This document shows positions 2,653-34,397 of a DNA stretch of 42,839 bases, piece by piece. Below the pieces are notes generated by a model. That model saw only the letters and a list, made by a program, of their open reading frames with translations. It had not been told where the DNA came from and made no database searches. The translations under genes and the position numbers were made by a program. Source of the DNA: a virus (taxonomy: Duplodnaviria; Heunggongvirae; Uroviricota; Caudoviricetes); IMG/VR virus record IMGVR_UViG_2870464427_000004, positions 1 through 42,839 of that record. The stretch is one strand, 5' to 3'. Each line of letters opens with the position of its first letter. Within the stretch, counting starts at the first letter, position 1.

Positions 2653-3474
2653 TCACGCCGCCCTCACGATATAGTTAAATGCGATATTGCGGGGGCGAGC
2701 TGATACATAAGCCCACCAGTCATATCTTTGTGCACCTTTAGAGGATGCATCAAATATCCACTTTTTGCCATTTATGACCCCCAGTTGATTAGAGGTTAAA
2801 GCGTCACCAAATCCGTATTGTGTAGAGCCGAGCGAACTGATATCTCCGGTATCATTATCATCAAAACCGGATACGATAGTCCCTTCCTGAAATGAAAGTA
2901 GCGCACGCCCGGTATCAACCTTGCGACCACCGTCCCATCCACGGATAAACTCACCGCGCAAATCGGGAAGACGGAGGGTCGGGTAGACTCTGGCCAGAAC
3001 AGGATATTGTTCTTTTGTAAAGGCGCGCCCGTCGCACTTTAACCAGCCTGCTGGCGGTGTGGCGGTGGGCCACGGAACCGGTACACCAACAGGCAATGCA
3101 GAGCCTTCCCCCAAACCAAGGTTTTCGAGAGCCGTTTCCACCGTGCCATCCGATTTGATATCACCAAACGGATTCTTGCGGCTCAGGTATTCAACAGCAA
3201 ACCCCGATCCCAGCAATTCAACAAAACCGGGCAGATCACCATTATCAAGCACATCCCGTTGCGTTTTATCACTTACAAACTGGGCCAGAGCTGCAGCAAT
3301 AAAGCTGGCCTGCCGAATAACCTTATTGACTTGCGCACTGGAGGCTTTCCCTGCTGTAAATCCAGATAAAAGCGCGGGCAACGCTTCCCATTCCTCCTGC
3401 GATATAACATTGGCATTTCGATCCGTTGCAAACGCTTTAAAGTCATTTTTCGCCATCAGAGTAATACTCCCCAT
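2653..3474 (-). CDS. Tail fibre protein (constant N-terminal part plus currently expressed variable C-terminal part)
   Basis: 273 aa; crosses the right inverted repeat; likely true start at ATG 3456 (ATGA overlap with upstream gene stop). Confidence 0.85.
3040..3119. repeat. Right inverted repeat (partner of 1515..1594) with hix-like site CTCTCGAAAACC-TT-GGTTTGGGGGAA on minus strand (3105..3132)
   Basis: Perfect reverse-complement identity with 1515..1594; left half-site closely matches the Hin hix half-site. Confidence 0.9.
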
Positions 3475-4136: not shown

Positions 4137-5332
4137 GACTCCACCGTTATAACGATATTTTCCGGGGTACAGGACGCAGATTCGTTGTATCTGATATCAA
4201 TGTTTGATGACGACAAAGCCCCCGGGGATTTCCCAATCGTCAGTTCCTGAATATCGTAATAGCGTGCATTCCCGCCACTCACCACGCCAAGATTCGCCGG
4301 TGAGTAAATGCGACTTAAAAGGACCGAATCACCAATCATCAGACTATTGATATAGTCGGAAATAGCCTGCTGGATCTGCTGCCCTATCTGTGAGGTATAA
4401 CCCGTAAAAACTTTTAATTTAATCCGGGCATAAACAGGCACATCACTGGAACGCGAAAATTTGATTACATGGGGATTGCCGTATTTATCCGGAACCGTAA
4501 CGGATGTTGTACCGTGAGTGGCTGTCCCCGGGCCTTTATTCCCTCTGATAGCCTGAGCAATATCCGTCACATCACCGCCATCCACAATTACAGCAACAGA
4601 GTGTGGCGGTAACCCGTTACCGTCCTCCGAACCATTATCGTTTTCATAGAGTTTGTGGCGGGTTACACCGGTAACATTAGAAACAGCACCATCCAGTGCT
4701 TCAAATGGGGTTATTGATGGCAACGCAACACTTTGCGACTGTCGGATACGTAACTCCGCATCAGTTTCTGCCGGAGTGCCCACAGTAGCCGCAGCAGGAT
4801 TGGTTACCGAAACCCAGCCACGGGTTGGCGTATTAATTTCAGTGATAGTTCCAGCCAGCGCCGCCACTGCACCACTGACGGAACATGTTGCGGTCACCAT
4901 CACTGTACCATCCACGCCGACCACCACTGAAGCAGGCAAACGCCATATCACATTATTACTGTCTTTCACGCTGCCATTAATGATGGTTGTTCCGGCAGTT
5001 CCTGTAAGAAGCAAATCAACCGTAGAGTTCGTCGCGCCTTTACGTGAAATACCATTTATTTTCACGTTACTGGTCAGTGCAGCCCCATAGCCGGTTGCTG
5101 GTGAAAAACAGTTGTAGACAGTTATCGCCATATTATTGGCATCATGAATCGCCAGCGCCATCAGAGCCACCATCTGACCGTCCTTACTGTCCGGTTCGAG
5201 GTAGGCATCACTACCATAAATCTGCTGAAAATAGCTAATCAGGGTGCTGAGTATCGTCTGATAATCAGGCGCACTGATCCCCTCCGCGGTTACCTTTGCA
5301 GATAAACCGAGAGAATCAAGGTTCAGAGCCAT
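4133..5332 (-). CDS. Baseplate J-like protein (Mu gp47-like)
   Basis: 399 aa, size and position typical of baseplate J family; overlapping start/stop with neighbours. Confidence 0.65.
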   Translation of the reverse strand: MALNLDSLGLSAKVTAEGISAPDYQTILSTLISYFQQIYGSDAYLEPDSKDGQMVALMALAIHDANNMAITVYNCFSPATGYGAALTSNVKINGISRKGATNSTVDLLLTGTAGTTIINGSVKDSNNVIWRLPASVVVGVDGTVMVTATCSVSGAVAALAGTITEINTPTRGWVSVTNPAAATVGTPAETDAELRIRQSQSVALPSITPFEALDGAVSNVTGVTRHKLYENDNGSEDGNGLPPHSVAVIVDGGDVTDIAQAIRGNKGPGTATHGTTSVTVPDKYGNPHVIKFSRSSDVPVYARIKLKVFTGYTSQIGQQIQQAISDYINSLMIGDSVLLSRIYSPANLGVVSGGNARYYDIQELTIGKSPGALSSSNIDIRYNESASCTPENIVITVES

Positions 5333-9187: not shown

Positions 9188-11175
9188 TAACCCACCCTCA
9201 CCTGATTACTTCGCATGACCTGAGCATTTGCAGACTGTTGCCGACGTGCAACCTCATTACCGACAGCGTGCGGATCTCCGCCACCGTAAATGTGGTAGGT
9301 ATTTTGCTGGTTAACCTCTGTCACTTTGCCACTAATTCCTGCCACGGCAGCCTTATTAATCAGCTCTCGGGAATAGATATTTCTTCCATTTTCATGCTGG
9401 ATAATGCTGCTCATCAATGCTGACATGGTTTGCGGATCGCTCATATTCAGGGCAGCCCGGGGATCCACTCCCAGTCGTTGCGATACAGCCCTGATATACG
9501 CAGTTGTGTTGTTATTATCAGACGCAGGTGCCCAGGTAGAGATAATTTTCTCCACACTGTTTATTCCCCGTCCGGCGTACAGCATTAACTGACGAGCAAG
9601 AGCCCGTAATCCATCAAAAGCAGTTTCAAATCTGGCAAATCGCCCGCCCGGGCGTTCAAGAGAAGCCCCTGCCTGACCAGCAAAATTAAGGTTTCCCGGA
9701 TTGTTATTCCGTTCTCCTCGTTTCGTAGCCTGTGCATATTGTTCCGGCTCATCATCACCAAACCAGCCGCGTACCGTCCGGCCCACACTGCGGGGATCGA
9801 ATCCCCAGTGCTCTTTAATCCAGTCGGCAGTACTGTTAGCGCTGTCTGTAACCATCGGCATCGCTGACGGATTTTCGCTGCCCTGATTAAGTATCTGTTT
9901 GCCGATGCTGACGGCATCAGCCCAGCGGCCATCTTTGATAGCGTTGAGCAGGTCAGCGATCATGTTCAGCATTTTGCTGAATTCGCCCATCTGGTCGATG
10001 AAGTTGCTGAAATCCCACTTCAGGGACCATGATTTGGGGTCAATATTGAGCAGTTTCGCCAGCGCTTTCACCAGGTCGTTAACGGTCGTTTTAAGGTCAC
10101 GAACCATCTTCAGCGCGGCATCGACCTCCGGTTTCCACTTGCCCCAGTCAATCAGGCTGTCGCCGCCTTCCTTCCAGGTCTGATAGTCCTCCCACAGGAG
10201 GGCAATACCCGCCGCCAGCGCGGTAATGAGGCCAATCGGCGACATCCAGAACGTACTGTTCAGAATGCGCAGCGCAATCGTCAGTGCGCCAAACAGCGAG
10301 ATCAACTCCCGCGTTTGCTTATCCAGCGATTGCCACCAGGTGATAAGGCCTGATGTCCCCTCAATCAGTCTGAAGAACAGCCGCCCGATAATATCCCCGA
10401 GCGCCAGAATGCCTTTTATGGCTTTCGTCAGGGTCTGCTCGATACGAGGGAAGTTGTCCAGGATATGGCGGCGCAGGGTGTCCAGCGAACCCGCAAGCCC
10501 CCCCGCAAGATTAGAGCCGATTTTGTCACGGGCCATGCCTGCCATCGCGCCAAACTCACGCAGGGAGGTCATAAATTTGTTGGAGCTTCTGGCCGCCTCG
10601 TCAGCATTGAAGCCGATAGCTTTCGCCATTGCGCTGTACTGCCCGGAGAAGCCACCCACACCCCGGCGCATCGCCATAAGGGTATTTTCGTCAATGCCCA
10701 GCATCTGCGCATACTGGTTAGCCCGGTAATACGGCATGCTGCTGAGTTTCTGTCCAACGCCCGTAAAAATAGCGGCCATGTCACGCATGTTACCGCTGGC
10801 ATCACGGGTCTGTACGCCCAGGCGATTCAGAAAGCCTTCTGCACCGGGATTGTTACGAATAAACCGGGAGAGGCTTTCCAGAGAAGATCGCGCAGCGTCC
10901 ACGCTGCCGCCAACCTGCGAAACCGCATAGCCAATAGACTGAATTCCCTGGACTGTCGCGCCGGTGCGCTGTGACGCCCAGTAAAGATTATCCAGGCCGG
11001 AGGCGATCTTAGCCGTGAAGGCCACCACGGACAGCGCAGCTCCTTCAACAGCCAGCCCCATTTTGATGACATTTGCAGTTGTACCGGCGAGGACAGAACC
11101 GAACTTTTTCGCTCCTGCATCATCCACACTGAAGCCAAGCGAGACGAGGAAATCTTTAATAGTTTCAGCGTTCAT
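9187..11175 (-). CDS. Tail tape measure protein
   Basis: About 660 aa, Ala/Gly-rich, internal hydrophobic segments; ATG at 11175 preceded by GGAGAGAGG RBS (ORF track start 11196 is TTG). Confidence 0.8.
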   Translation of the reverse strand: MNAETIKDFLVSLGFSVDDAGAKKFGSVLAGTTANVIKMGLAVEGAALSVVAFTAKIASGLDNLYWASQRTGATVQGIQSIGYAVSQVGGSVDAARSSLESLSRFIRNNPGAEGFLNRLGVQTRDASGNMRDMAAIFTGVGQKLSSMPYYRANQYAQMLGIDENTLMAMRRGVGGFSGQYSAMAKAIGFNADEAARSSNKFMTSLREFGAMAGMARDKIGSNLAGGLAGSLDTLRRHILDNFPRIEQTLTKAIKGILALGDIIGRLFFRLIEGTSGLITWWQSLDKQTRELISLFGALTIALRILNSTFWMSPIGLITALAAGIALLWEDYQTWKEGGDSLIDWGKWKPEVDAALKMVRDLKTTVNDLVKALAKLLNIDPKSWSLKWDFSNFIDQMGEFSKMLNMIADLLNAIKDGRWADAVSIGKQILNQGSENPSAMPMVTDSANSTADWIKEHWGFDPRSVGRTVRGWFGDDEPEQYAQATKRGERNNNPGNLNFAGQAGASLERPGGRFARFETAFDGLRALARQLMLYAGRGINSVEKIISTWAPASDNNNTTAYIRAVSQRLGVDPRAALNMSDPQTMSALMSSIIQHENGRNIYSRELINKAAVAGISGKVTEVNQQNTYHIYGGGDPHAVGNEVARRQQSANAQVMRSNQVRVG

Positions 11176-28658: not shown

Positions 28659-28883
28659 TTACACCTTTTGCTGCTCTGAATTTTCGCCGTTTAATAGCCA
28701 GTCAGGATCGCATTTCAGAACTTTTGCCAATTCAAGGATGAAACCGGTACGGGTAGCGCGTCCGGACTCAAGGTATTGAACAGACTGCTGGCGCATGCCA
28801 ACACTTTTAGCCAATGAAGTTTGGGTTATACCTAAGGCTTTGCGGCGCTCCTTTATACGTGAAGCAAGGGTAGAACTGGTCAT
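28659..28883 (-). CDS. Cro-like HTH transcriptional regulator (XRE family)
   Basis: HTH segment LGITQTSLAKSVGMRQQSVQYLESG; divergent from CI-like repressor; start ATG 28883 with GAGGG RBS (ORF track extends to 28946). Confidence 0.7.
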   Translation of the reverse strand: MTSSTLASRIKERRKALGITQTSLAKSVGMRQQSVQYLESGRATRTGFILELAKVLKCDPDWLLNGENSEQQKV

Positions 28884-28900: not shown

Positions 28901-28963
28901 TTACAGGTTTACTTGTAATTACCTCACAGGCAACCTTGTTTGTCAAATACAGAAGTATCTGTA
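28901..28963. promoter_or_regulatory. Operator palindromes in cI/cro intergenic region
   Basis: TTACAGGTTTACTTGTAA (28901..28918) and TACAGAAGTATCTGTA (28948..28963); candidate -35 TTGTCA / -10 TAATCA for the cI side. Confidence 0.5.
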
Positions 28964-28990: not shown

Positions 28991-29620
28991 ATGAATCTTG
29001 CCAACCGAGCTAAAAAACGCAGAACAGAACTAAACTTAACTCAGGTCGAAGTTGCGAAACGAGCAGGCATTAGCCAGCAGTCGATTGAAGCTATAGAGAA
29101 TGGGAAAACACTTAAACCACGCAATCTTCTTGCTTTAGCGTCAGCTCTTGAATGCGATCCTAAATGGCTACTTCTTGGGGGCGATGTTGTTACAGATTTC
29201 AACTACGGAGCTCGAAGGGTGCCTGTTCTAAGCTACGTACAAGCCGGGGCTTTCACAAGCGCTGAGCTACTTCGTGAAGAAGGTGATTTCGAATACATTC
29301 TCACCACGGCTGAGCTATCAGAAAGTTCATTTGCGCTACGTATACGTGGGGATTCAATGGAACCTGAATTTAAAGAGGGGGACATCGTTATAATTGACAC
29401 TGACGTATACCCTACTCCTGGTGAATTCGTTGCGGCATGTAACGGTAGCCACGAAGCAACGTTCAAAAAATACCGCCCGGTAGGGATTGGCGCTAAAGGT
29501 GAGGAAGACTTTGAACTTGTTCCATTGAATAGTGATTACCCTATTTGTCGCTCCTGGGAAAAACCAATTAAGATCATAGGGACAATGGTAGAACATCGCA
29601 TATTCCGCAGAAAAAGATAA
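28991..29620 (+). CDS. CI-like repressor (HTH plus LexA/S24 peptidase-like autocleavage domain)
   Basis: HTH LNLTQVEVAKRAGISQQSIEAIENG; C-terminal GDSMEP and FKKY Ser-Lys dyad context; start ATG 28991 with AAAGGAG RBS. Confidence 0.85.
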   Translation: MNLANRAKKRRTELNLTQVEVAKRAGISQQSIEAIENGKTLKPRNLLALASALECDPKWLLLGGDVVTDFNYGARRVPVLSYVQAGAFTSAELLREEGDFEYILTTAELSESSFALRIRGDSMEPEFKEGDIVIIDTDVYPTPGEFVAACNGSHEATFKKYRPVGIGAKGEEDFELVPLNSDYPICRSWEKPIKIIGTMVEHRIFRRKR

Positions 29621-29642
29621 TCGCATCCTGACTACTAAACAA

Positions 29643-29666
29643 AGAGGGCTTAGGCCCTCTTTTTTA
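29643..29666 (+). terminator. Rho-independent terminator after cI
   Basis: agagggc-ttag-gccctct stem followed by TTTTTT. Confidence 0.75.
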
Positions 29667-29722
29667 TTACCCGTAAAAACAAGTAATTAGGTTAATAATG
29701 CATTTTATTACCAAAATACCTG

Positions 29723-29752
29723 TTGACGCATTTACAGGTTTGCTTGTATTTT
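29723..29752 (+). promoter_or_regulatory. Candidate repressor-controlled promoter (-35 TTGACG) overlapping a second operator copy
   Basis: TTACAGGTTTGCTTGTA at 29732..29748 matches the operator at 28901..28918 at 16 of 17 positions. Confidence 0.45.
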
Positions 29753-29996
29753 TAATCGCAATAAGTAATCGCTCTTTAACAAACTGAACCGCGTGACAGG
29801 TAAGCCGCAGTACTCCTGGCAAAATGAAATGGCACCCGATGGGATCGAGGTAAGCGCCGAGTCCGTATGCGTACGGTAAGCGTAGAGGACAACACCGCGA
29901 CGAACTGATAAGTCACGCAAGTTGAAACGCCCCGACGATGGGGCGCTTAGTTCCTTTAACTCTGGGTGGCCGGAAGGGTACCCATGCTTAAAGAAA

Positions 29997-30566
29997 TTAC
30001 TGGTTGTAAGGATCGTAATCCGTGATTGCCTTCCCCGGATTTTCATCTTCAGAAGGCAGTCGGGCCTCTAAAGCATTTCGGTTGAACAGATAGGAAGCCC
30101 TACAGTACGAACAAACCATATTAACGGCTCGCCCAAGGCCTGGCTTAGTAACCAGACCTTCCGCTTGCAATATAGATTTTCTCTTTTGCTCGTAGCAATT
30201 GGGACAAATATAAACCGGAGATTGGTCAGCATCTGCAGAAAGCTTGCTGCGATAGACCAGAGTACCCCGCATAGGCTGGTAAAGTTCATAGCTCGCCGCT
30301 TCAGCGGCCCAGTTCTCTTGCTTTACTTTCTCATTTTCCAGTTCAACAATTTTCTCCTTAGCCGCAATCAGCAGCTCCTGAAGCGACATTTGCTGCATCT
30401 GAACATCCATTAGCTTATCGAGTAAGATGTGCGTCTTCTCTTTAACTGCATAGTCGACAGTCAGATTCTGAATCTCTCTTGCTGCTCCAACCGCGCTTTT
30501 AATTGCTCCTCCCACGCCGGATAACGATTCAGTTATCCGGGAAAGAATTCCTTTTTCTTCAGACAT
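29997..30566 (-). CDS. Hypothetical zinc-ribbon protein (CPNC ... CSYC) adjacent to immunity region
   Basis: 189 aa, coiled-coil N-terminal half, two CxxC pairs; convergent with cI; GAGAGAGA RBS. Confidence 0.6.
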   Translation of the reverse strand: MSEEKGILSRITESLSGVGGAIKSAVGAAREIQNLTVDYAVKEKTHILLDKLMDVQMQQMSLQELLIAAKEKIVELENEKVKQENWAAEAASYELYQPMRGTLVYRSKLSADADQSPVYICPNCYEQKRKSILQAEGLVTKPGLGRAVNMVCSYCRASYLFNRNALEARLPSEDENPGKAITDYDPYNQ

Positions 30567-30705
30567 ATCTAATCTCTCTCAAACTGTAGGGGTGAAGAGA
30601 TATTAGACGATTTCTCACTGTAGGGGTACAAGGAGAACCACCTCGCCTGATGTGGTTAAAAGCAGGCACTCGATGATATCCATGTAATTGCTGTATGTAG
30701 TCTTT

Positions 30706-30731
30706 GCCCGCCTCAAGTGACGGGCTTTTTT
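30706..30731 (+). terminator. Possible intrinsic terminator upstream of early operon
   Basis: gcccg...cgggc stem followed by TTTTTT; short stem, moderate confidence. Confidence 0.4.
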
Positions 30732-30790: not shown

Positions 30791-30940
30791 ATGAAACCTG
30801 AACACATCCATCGACTGACGGGGCGCGATGTTCTCCGTTATCGCCGTAAAAACTTCGATTTGATGACCGGTCTGGCCGTTGCCACTGCGCTCGGTCTGAT
30901 CATCACTTTCATTCTCCTTGTGGCGAGGACCACAGTATGA
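30791..30940 (+). CDS. Small membrane protein (49 aa) at head of early operon
   Basis: AGGA RBS 10 nt upstream of ATG 30791; C-terminal TM helix LAVATALGLIITFILLV; ORF track start 30758 is GTG. Confidence 0.5.
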   Translation: MKPEHIHRLTGRDVLRYRRKNFDLMTGLAVATALGLIITFILLVARTTV

Positions 30941-33728: not shown

Positions 33729-34397
33729 GTGCTGGGGTATCTCATGAGGGAAAGAATAATGTCACAGCCCGTATTAACTAATCACCTTAAAACTCAAATC
33801 ATCAATAACGCACTTGAGAAAGCGGGTATCCCCAAACGTAAATCAGCACTACGAGCTGCTCGTGTTGAATGGGCCGAACGTGTTCGGCTTGCAGCTATCG
33901 GGGGCGTAGAGAAAGAAGCTGAAATATTAAAAATTATAAAAAAAATAGAAATACTGGTATCAAAAGTCCCCGAAGCATTAAAAACCGCCAATAATATTAT
34001 CAGGAAAGAGTGTTACATGTGTCTGAATCTGGCAGGTTCTCGGGTTACCGTCTATTTCAACGGTAACTATCGAGGATATGAATCAGGGTCACCAGACCAT
34101 ATTCACAAAATCGCGCCGGGGGAATTTACCCTTCTGGCAAATGACCCTCTAGTTACAGAGTTTTACGGGTTTGATGCACTTTATGAGCAGATACAGAGCG
34201 ATGAGTCAGACATTCGACAGAATGTCAGCGCTGCACTCAGTAAAGTGCGCACAGTTAAGCGCCTGCTGGAAGAGTGGCCTGAAGCTAAAGAACTTCTGCC
34301 AGCCGATGCACCATCTGCTCCGCTTCCGCCAGCTATACGACGCGAAACTCTCAACGAAATGATCGGCCTCCCTTCTGACGAAGGGGTAGATGCTTAA
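33729..34397 (+). CDS. Hypothetical early protein
   Basis: 222 aa ORF; start uncertain. Confidence 0.5.
   Translation: MLGYLMRERIMSQPVLTNHLKTQIINNALEKAGIPKRKSALRAARVEWAERVRLAAIGGVEKEAEILKIIKKIEILVSKVPEALKTANNIIRKECYMCLNLAGSRVTVYFNGNYRGYESGSPDHIHKIAPGEFTLLANDPLVTEFYGFDALYEQIQSDESDIRQNVSAALSKVRTVKRLLEEWPEAKELLPADAPSAPLPPAIRRETLNEMIGLPSDEGVDA

Follow-up and report, generated by a model that had tools for sequence, protein, structure and literature searches.

The non-coding leader that opens the early rightward transcript of this Escherichia coli prophage most likely represents an undescribed class of structured RNA, and comparison with its relatives favors, at a probability of roughly two in three, the reading that it belongs to a new structural class of cis-acting RNAs for processive antitermination and is a functional analogue of the put RNAs. 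The window, by which we mean the whole stretch of 42,839 nucleotides that was analyzed, is an E. coli prophage sequence; a 501-base query spanning 29600-30100 is 100% identical to CP150994. The complete module lies on the plus strand at 29769-29945, is about 175 nt long, and consists of a boxA, a domain of about 130 nt comprising helices P1, P2, P2b, P3, P4 and P5, and a GC-rich hairpin, P6. A covariance model built in this analysis (R1) recognizes the core of the element, from boxA through the 3′ strand of P1 (29769-29918, plus strand), with 182 bits and an E-value of 5e-47, and finds a single copy in the window. An earlier sequence-only reading had named a cis-acting antitermination RNA and a small regulatory RNA as candidates for the region; comparison lends strong support to the former, through the mutual exclusion of the element and put in two phage groups and the position of the element upstream of intrinsic terminators. 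Antitermination itself, action in cis, the use of Nus factors and the dispensability of a phage protein are the properties that we infer for it.

The surroundings are those of an early control region. The phage group to which the window belongs is characterized by genes for DUF2800, DUF2815, a DNA polymerase and a DUF5906/VapE primase. A LexA-like, cI-type repressor with HTH and S24 peptidase domains is encoded on the plus strand at 28991-29620, and a cro-like HTH gene on the minus strand at 28659-28883. The cI transcript ends at an intrinsic terminator (29641-29662, plus strand; a 9-bp stem and then a T-run) that shields the early promoter from upstream transcription. This rightward promoter (29723-29752, plus strand) has a −35 hexamer TTGACG, an 18-nt spacer and a −10 hexamer TATTTT. 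The 16-nt operator TACAGGTTTNCTTGTA (TACAGGTTTGCTTGTA) at 29733-29748 overlaps the spacer and the −10 hexamer, and occurs in exactly two identical copies in the window, the other lying between cI and cro at 28902-28917. Because an exact second operator copy overlaps it, the early promoter can be regarded as repressor-controlled, as had been proposed from the sequence.

Between the element and the early operon lie a variable insert and a terminator. In the window the insert is a zinc-ribbon gene (phrog_1244) on the minus strand at 29997-30566, which early transcription must cross antisense; it is missing from CP027366 and from many IMG/VR relatives, and elsewhere an HNH endonuclease and other genes take its place. 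The leader had been described as antisense to the 3′ end of this gene, and the gene is indeed on the minus strand, but since it is a variable insert absent from many relatives the antisense relation is incidental. An intrinsic terminator of the form GCCCG-loop-CGGGC-UUUUUU (30706-30731, plus strand; read directly, predicted ΔG −9.8) follows just 5′ of the first conserved early gene, and relatives carry a stronger conserved form, GCCCCUCGCAAGAGGGGCUCUUUUUU. Immediately 5′ of this terminator is a conserved GU-rich stretch (30684-30705, plus strand; CATTGCATTGCTGTGTGTAGTCTTTG in relatives) that resembles boxC (GGUGUGUG). The rightward operon then begins with a 49-aa gene (30791-30940, plus strand) and continues with a 300-aa gene at 30937, DUF2800 and further genes including DUF2815 and the DNA polymerase. 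The 49-aa protein (phrog_11981) is without a Pfam match and has an arginine-rich N-terminus (HRLTGRDVLRYRRK) and a C-terminal transmembrane helix; in all relatives its gene opens the conserved part of the rightward operon, each time directly 3′ of a strong terminator. Beside DUF2815 and the DNA polymerase, the annotation of the identical CP150994 region places a putative nucleotide-modification protein of the Nmad5 family (33759-34397), which hints at modified DNA in this phage group.

The element opens with a boxA that was missed in the sequence-only reading. The sequence GCTCTTTAACAA (GCUCUUUAACAA; 29771-29782, plus strand) is identical to the core of the rrn boxA, matches the nut boxA consensus CGCUCUUUA exactly, and is the sole exact copy in the window, for which we estimate a chance expectation of about 0.005. 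It is always attached to sequence types 1-3 of the element and is degenerate in type 4 (GCUCAUUAAGAA). The transcript is predicted to start about 10-14 nt 5′ of boxA, which would thus lie about 11-14 nt into it. Of 37 good promoter contexts, representing at least five unrelated promoter/operator types, 32 have the end of the −10 hexamer placed 17-21 nt before boxA. On the other side, 67 of 83 distinct contexts have a predicted intrinsic terminator on the same strand no more than 1 kb downstream, and the relatives with the simplest arrangement have a strong terminator directly adjoining the ribosome-binding site of their first early gene. Homology to other genomes breaks off on the left exactly at the 5′ edge of boxA (in phages with other immunity regions, for example ON470579) and on the right just after the P6 hairpin (for example in CP027366, which has no zinc-ribbon gene), a pattern that marks the element as a discrete mosaic module.

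The four sequence types are predicted to share one architecture, a three-way junction formed by a P1-P2-P2b stalk, P3 and P4/P5. A spacer of about 8 nt separates boxA from the 5′ strand of P1 (GCGUGAC, 29791-29797), which pairs with GUCACGC at 29912-29918, both on the plus strand; this long-range complementarity had been recognized from the sequence with its left arm misplaced by one position, at 29790. Six of the seven P1 pairs covary over the four types, as in GAGUGAC/GUCACUC and GCAUGAC/GUCAUGC, and in type 4 the helix is completely rewritten as GCAGCAAAUCA/UGGUUUGCUGC. P2 pairs 29805-29812 with the 3′ strand CACCGCGA at 29893-29900 (plus strand) and has six covarying pairs and a conserved 1x1 mismatch, and the adjoining P2b (UCCU/AGGA, 29814-29817 with 29886-29889, plus strand) is invariant. 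The stalk leads into a single-stranded A-rich junction, GGCAAAAUGAAAUGGCA (29818-29834, plus strand), that is kept in all four types with the consensus GGCAAAAYGAAAURGC. P3 follows as the hairpin CC-CGA-UGGGA-UCG-A-GG (29835-29850, plus strand), with GGA in its apical loop and a bulged A; its inner stem covaries fully and occurs in four complementary forms (CGA/UCG, GCGA/UCGC, GGUA/UACC and CAA/UUG), paired in 100% of cases. P4 (29854-29858 with 29879-29883, plus strand) encloses the P5 hairpin CCGUA-UGCG-UACGG (29863-29876), which had been noted as a local hairpin. The outer pair of P4 is G·U in 34 rows of the alignment, and G·U pairs of this kind identify the plus strand as the RNA strand. 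The terminal GC hairpin of the earlier reading is P6 (CGCCCC-GACGAU-GGGGCG, 29928-29945, plus strand); it marks the right-hand mosaic limit of types 1 and 2, shows compensatory variants in loci L005 and L140, and is replaced or absent in type 3. The compensatory changes in relatives make P1, P5 and P6 more than chance complementarities.

Several alignments of different origin support this structure. With all four types aligned by the covariance model, covariation is seen in 22 of 34 pairs, 171 cells are changed on both sides versus 57 in shuffles, and 91.4% of cells are paired versus 28-42% in slid controls; none of 500 shuffles reaches the observed covariation score or the paired percentage, and although this alignment is biased towards the R1 model, its controls are far off nonetheless. 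A MAFFT alignment of 22 type-1 sequences, which is not structure-guided, likewise has 91.4% of cells paired (slid controls 22-43%), with 19 cells in seven pairs changed on both sides, a number that none of 500 shuffles reaches. When three types are aligned by hand according to structure, 16 of the 36 pairs covary, and minimum-free-energy folding of the majority and Rac-type sequences independently yields the same helices. P2 contains two mismatches in the window copy, whose modeled structure (−26.8 kcal/mol) is weaker than its minimum-free-energy fold (−35.6). Single-sequence folding is no more stable than that of shuffles on either strand (z = +1.19 for the plus strand) and is uninformative; only comparison reveals the structure. 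The covariation and pairing across the types indicate that the RNA structure is under selection.

Two further sequence features of the leader proved to be of less consequence. The three GGTAAGC repeats reported from the sequence are present at 29799, 29849 and 29875, three of the seven copies in the window falling within 83 nt. As a functional motif they were rejected: type 4 is without the first copy, types 2 and 3 have altered ones, and the repeats are deletion endpoints. In three deletion derivatives (L075, L143 and L132) the endpoints lie in these direct repeats and P4a-P5 or P2a-P3 is gone; these are probably inactive copies. A pairing of boxA with the linker between the 3′ strand of P1 and P6 (UUUAAC/GUUGAA) was also dropped, as linker variants, compared by eye, break it without compensation.

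The element is widespread among enterobacterial prophages. Of 5426 complete E. coli genomes, 103 (about 2%) contain it, that of strain IAI1 among them, and it is present in more than 200 IMG/VR loci and falls into four sequence types. More than 100 IMG/VR contigs carry it, and type 4 is found in 79 further loci. Type 1 is that of the window, and a variant about 85% identical to it resides in Rac/HK639-like lambdoid prophages. A scan of species representatives gave only four true matches, all in Enterobacteriaceae, with the element in Pseudocitrobacter and Citrobacter (the Rac-type variant) and Trabulsiella (type 1); a Pluralibacter contig also matched the search pattern. Among isolated phages it is carried by four E. 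coli phages (vB_EcoM-606R2 and relatives), and type 4 is found in three Enterobacter phages, BHUENT6 among them. Directly 3′ of the element some loci have mini-ORFs with strong Shine-Dalgarno sequences (L004 and L005, both at about 3190-3215; L002, about 4360-4385; L150, about 10120-10140), in the forms GGAG..ATG AAG AAC TAA and GGAGG..ATG CAC AAG TAA or, in type 3, as the start-stops ATG TAA and ATG TAG. They may load ribosomes on the leader.

The relationship to put bears most directly on function. put is a conserved sequence with a two-stem fold of about 70 nt (AGACGAACGGCGCG..AAACCAUGCGUCGG..GGCAAU..) whose action is in cis, on the polymerase by which it was transcribed, via the zinc-binding domain of the β′ subunit. 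It needs no dedicated protein factors to suppress termination, be it intrinsic or Rho-dependent (PMC9378689). In the GenBank record of HK639 a 'putL-like antiterminator RNA' is annotated just downstream of pL, and in other HK639-like leaders the element replaces the put core between identical flanks (...GTTAGCCAGCGGCG on the left and TTTACCAGCAGCTCTTTGCGAGGGGCTGACGG...ATGGCAGATAAA on the right), as the type-1 variant in Rac/HK639-like prophages such as L005 and as type 4 in the HK639-like leader of Enterobacter phage BHUENT6. The same exchange is seen in the window's own phage group, from which 53 related loci with the 300-aa early protein were collected. Loci with the same promoter and operator carry either the element, which R1 finds in 26 of the 49 loci searched, or a true homologue of put, which shares more than 50 invariant columns with putL of HK022 and HK639. 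The census of the 53 loci counts put only in 21, the element only in 27, both in none and neither in five, three or four of the last being loci with truncated upstream flanks. Judging from these loci, put and the element behave as alternative, mutually exclusive cassettes in two unrelated phage groups, equivalent in the sense of the same position and not of the same activity. Since the exchange takes place at the same position in two unrelated groups and the two are never found together, the simplest account is that they would do the same job.

The put homologues in this group occur in non-lambdoid prophages of the DUF2800/PolA type (L278, 2381-2462; L276; L311, 1829-1910; and 18 further loci), so that the put family appears to be wider than HK022/HK639-type lambdoid phages, a distribution of which we found no earlier mention in the literature searched.

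The suggestion from the sequence that the leader is a put-like RNA as in HK022 fails in both sequence and structure. R1 gives no match in the HK022 and HK639 genomes, local alignment of the element to put does not rise above shuffles, and the element, unlike put, starts with a boxA. True homologues of put are readily told apart from it in the relatives. Homology by way of the strings GAACSGCGYGACAG-UAARCC and GGCAA..UGGC, noticed by eye, was rejected as not significant; such shared strings may be recombination microhomology. The element is not a member of the put family, given that R1 is blank in HK022 and HK639 and the shared string is not significant. Other described families were not matched either. 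No Rfam 15 family matches the window, or the element in any of its four types, at gathering thresholds, a permissive scan (E up to 10) finds nothing on the element region of the window, its only weak matches being the cI terminator, no tRNA or tmRNA was found, and the sequence of the element does not appear in the literature searched. Gathering-level Rfam matches unrelated to the element were seen elsewhere, to isrB in a Rac/HK639-like prophage (L005, 5216-5313, minus strand) and to STnc100 in HK639 (L190, 19781-19986, plus strand).

A sequence of events for processive antitermination by the element can be outlined as follows. On removal of the cI-like repressor, transcription would start about 10-14 nt upstream of boxA, and the nascent RNA would expose boxA first, where binding of host NusB and NusE (S10) is expected. 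NusB-NusE-boxA complexes are known to nucleate antitermination complexes (PMC3177189). The three-way-junction domain of about 130 nt, with its conserved A-rich junction, would then fold, and the element RNA would stay on the polymerase that made it and render it resistant to termination, like put. The polymerase could thereby read through the variable insert, here the antisense zinc-ribbon gene, and the terminator at 30706-30731, and would reach the replication operon with the 49-aa gene, the 300-aa gene, DUF2800, DUF2815 and the DNA polymerase. Because the boxA of type 4 is degenerate, the domain and not boxA is the invariant part of the element; boxA may therefore not be essential to the shared function and may have an auxiliary role, for example against Rho. 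Complexes on rrn-type boxA are best known for opposing Rho and not intrinsic terminators. A more specific version of the mechanism, which we advance tentatively and with clearly less confidence than antitermination itself, is that the element substitutes for lambda N in a protein-independent way, in which a boxA-NusB-NusE(-NusG) tether holds the RNA and the junction domain contacts RNA polymerase or NusA, so that both intrinsic and Rho-dependent terminators are ignored. If this is true, the element would combine the strategy of rrn/nut with that of put, and would add to the antiterminator RNAs a third class that is structurally unrelated to the others and widespread among the temperate phages of enterobacteria.

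The alternative that survives best, although it is unlikely, is that the leader is a nut-like site, in which boxA and the large RNA domain bind a phage or host protein that antiterminates as an analogue of N, the RNA alone being insufficient. boxA is the hallmark of nut sites, but it is followed in the element by no boxB-type local hairpin: the 8-nt spacer leads into the 5′ strand of P1, whose partner is 115 nt away, and no conserved local hairpin is found. The conserved unpaired nucleotides in the A-rich junction and the GGA of the P3 loop resemble a protein-binding surface; however, a search for proteins common to the carrier phage groups found none except generic HTH repressors. The arginine-rich N-terminus of the 49-aa protein encoded by the window's group recalls N, but this candidate for an N-like protein was rejected, having a transmembrane helix, lying beyond the terminator and being absent from HK639-like contexts. 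Proteins encoded in the N position near the element are acidic or neutral and not arginine-rich, which agrees with the sequence-only reading that no N-like antiterminator gene is evident. Consideration of the alternative cassette also argues against a protein requirement, as put is protein-independent (PMC9378689). A small trans factor may be encoded outside the stretches examined.

Somewhat less likely again is that only boxA matters, providing rrn-like anti-Rho protection to a long untranslated leader, while the domain is a 5′ stabilizer, a processing site or a riboswitch-like sensor. The boxA is a perfect rrn-type one and the leader is long, untranslated and antisense to inserted genes. Type 4, though, keeps the domain and degrades boxA, so that the domain is the more conserved of the two, and the downstream terminators are intrinsic, the kind that put, the alternative cassette, overrides. 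With its invariant junction nucleotides the three-way junction looks like an aptamer, yet neither a conserved expression platform nor an alternative pairing is present.

The other candidate of the sequence-only reading, a small RNA, must be considered improbable. Such an RNA would be a stable trans-acting transcript of about 190 nt, from the transcription start to P6, directed for example at host mRNAs or a defense system. The discrete module does end in the P6 GC hairpin, in the window with a T-rich tail (CTTAGTTCCTTT), its structure is conserved, and it would be expressed only on induction. Most relatives, though, have no U-tract after P6 (TGCAGTGAATTAATC...) and P6 is absent or replaced in type 3, so that the Rho-independent terminator with a 3′ U-tail typical of Hfq-type small RNAs is missing in most relatives. 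A trans-acting RNA would leave the either/or relation with put unexplained, no Rfam small RNA matches, and we know of no role for boxA in any small RNA.

A small protein or a DNA-level element (iterons or an origin) in place of an RNA is effectively excluded, despite open frames on the minus strand (29776-29916, 46 aa; 29732-30046, 104 aa), one relative with a hypothetical protein annotated over the element and the three direct GGTAAGC repeats, as there is no coding signal in any of the six frames (synonymous changes 17-29% in all, no third-position bias), amino-acid identity between types is lower than nucleotide identity, lengths between types differ by non-multiples of three, the covariation with its G·U pairs is strand-specific and the repeats are not conserved in type 4; the earlier statement that there is no credible plus-strand ORF is thereby borne out.

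The preferred reading, a cis-acting antitermination RNA, places the element among a small number of known systems with which it shares some features and not others. The nut sites of lambda consist of boxA and boxB, the N-binding hairpin a few nucleotides 3′ of boxA, and act with N and Nus factors. Like nut, the element carries boxA shortly after the start of an early transcript, with terminators further downstream, and use of NusB and NusE is expected; unlike nut, it lacks a boxB hairpin (GNRA-like loop, 5-10 nt 3′ of boxA) and has a covarying domain of about 130 nt instead, and no N-like arginine-rich protein was found near it. Antitermination in rrn operons relies on the order boxB-boxA-boxC with NusA, NusB, NusE, NusG, S4 and SuhB, needs no phage protein and mainly opposes Rho. 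The element shares with the rrn leader the identical boxA core, and in HK639-like leaders a hairpin 5′ of boxA gives an rrn-like order boxB-boxA; however, there is no similarity beyond boxA, no boxC is adjacent, and the obstacles here are intrinsic terminators. This 5′ hairpin is found only in the HK639-like leaders and is absent from the window, where the GU-rich stretch described above is far downstream. In those leaders it is a covarying hairpin 3 nt 5′ of boxA (L191, 2945-2965; L004 and L005, about 2975-2995) with the sequence GGCGGAC-AGCAA-GUCGCC or the variant GCCAGAC..GUCAGGC. The eps-associated RNA (EAR) of Bacillus, a cis-acting processive antitermination RNA, is likewise structured, lies within or upstream of an operon and is proposed to render polymerase resistant to termination, but its sequence, host and context are unrelated, and the EAR family of Rfam gives no match.

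To our knowledge few RNAs act directly on RNA polymerase to reprogram it, and among those of phages put has stood nearly alone for decades. The presence of a canonical boxA means that the element could show an RNA domain replacing N within a Nus-factor complex, and would link the rrn, nut and put mechanisms. It can also serve to mark the early operon in temperate phages that lack N and is a candidate for a new Rfam family, and the natural swaps of put and the element are ready-made isogenic comparisons. Like put in HK022 and HK639, the element is the first structured element of a repressor-controlled early transcript, lies upstream of terminators and has no evident cognate antiterminator protein; unlike put, it is about 150-175 nt long, forms a three-way junction and starts with a boxA. 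It appears to be a second, unrelated solution to the task that put performs.
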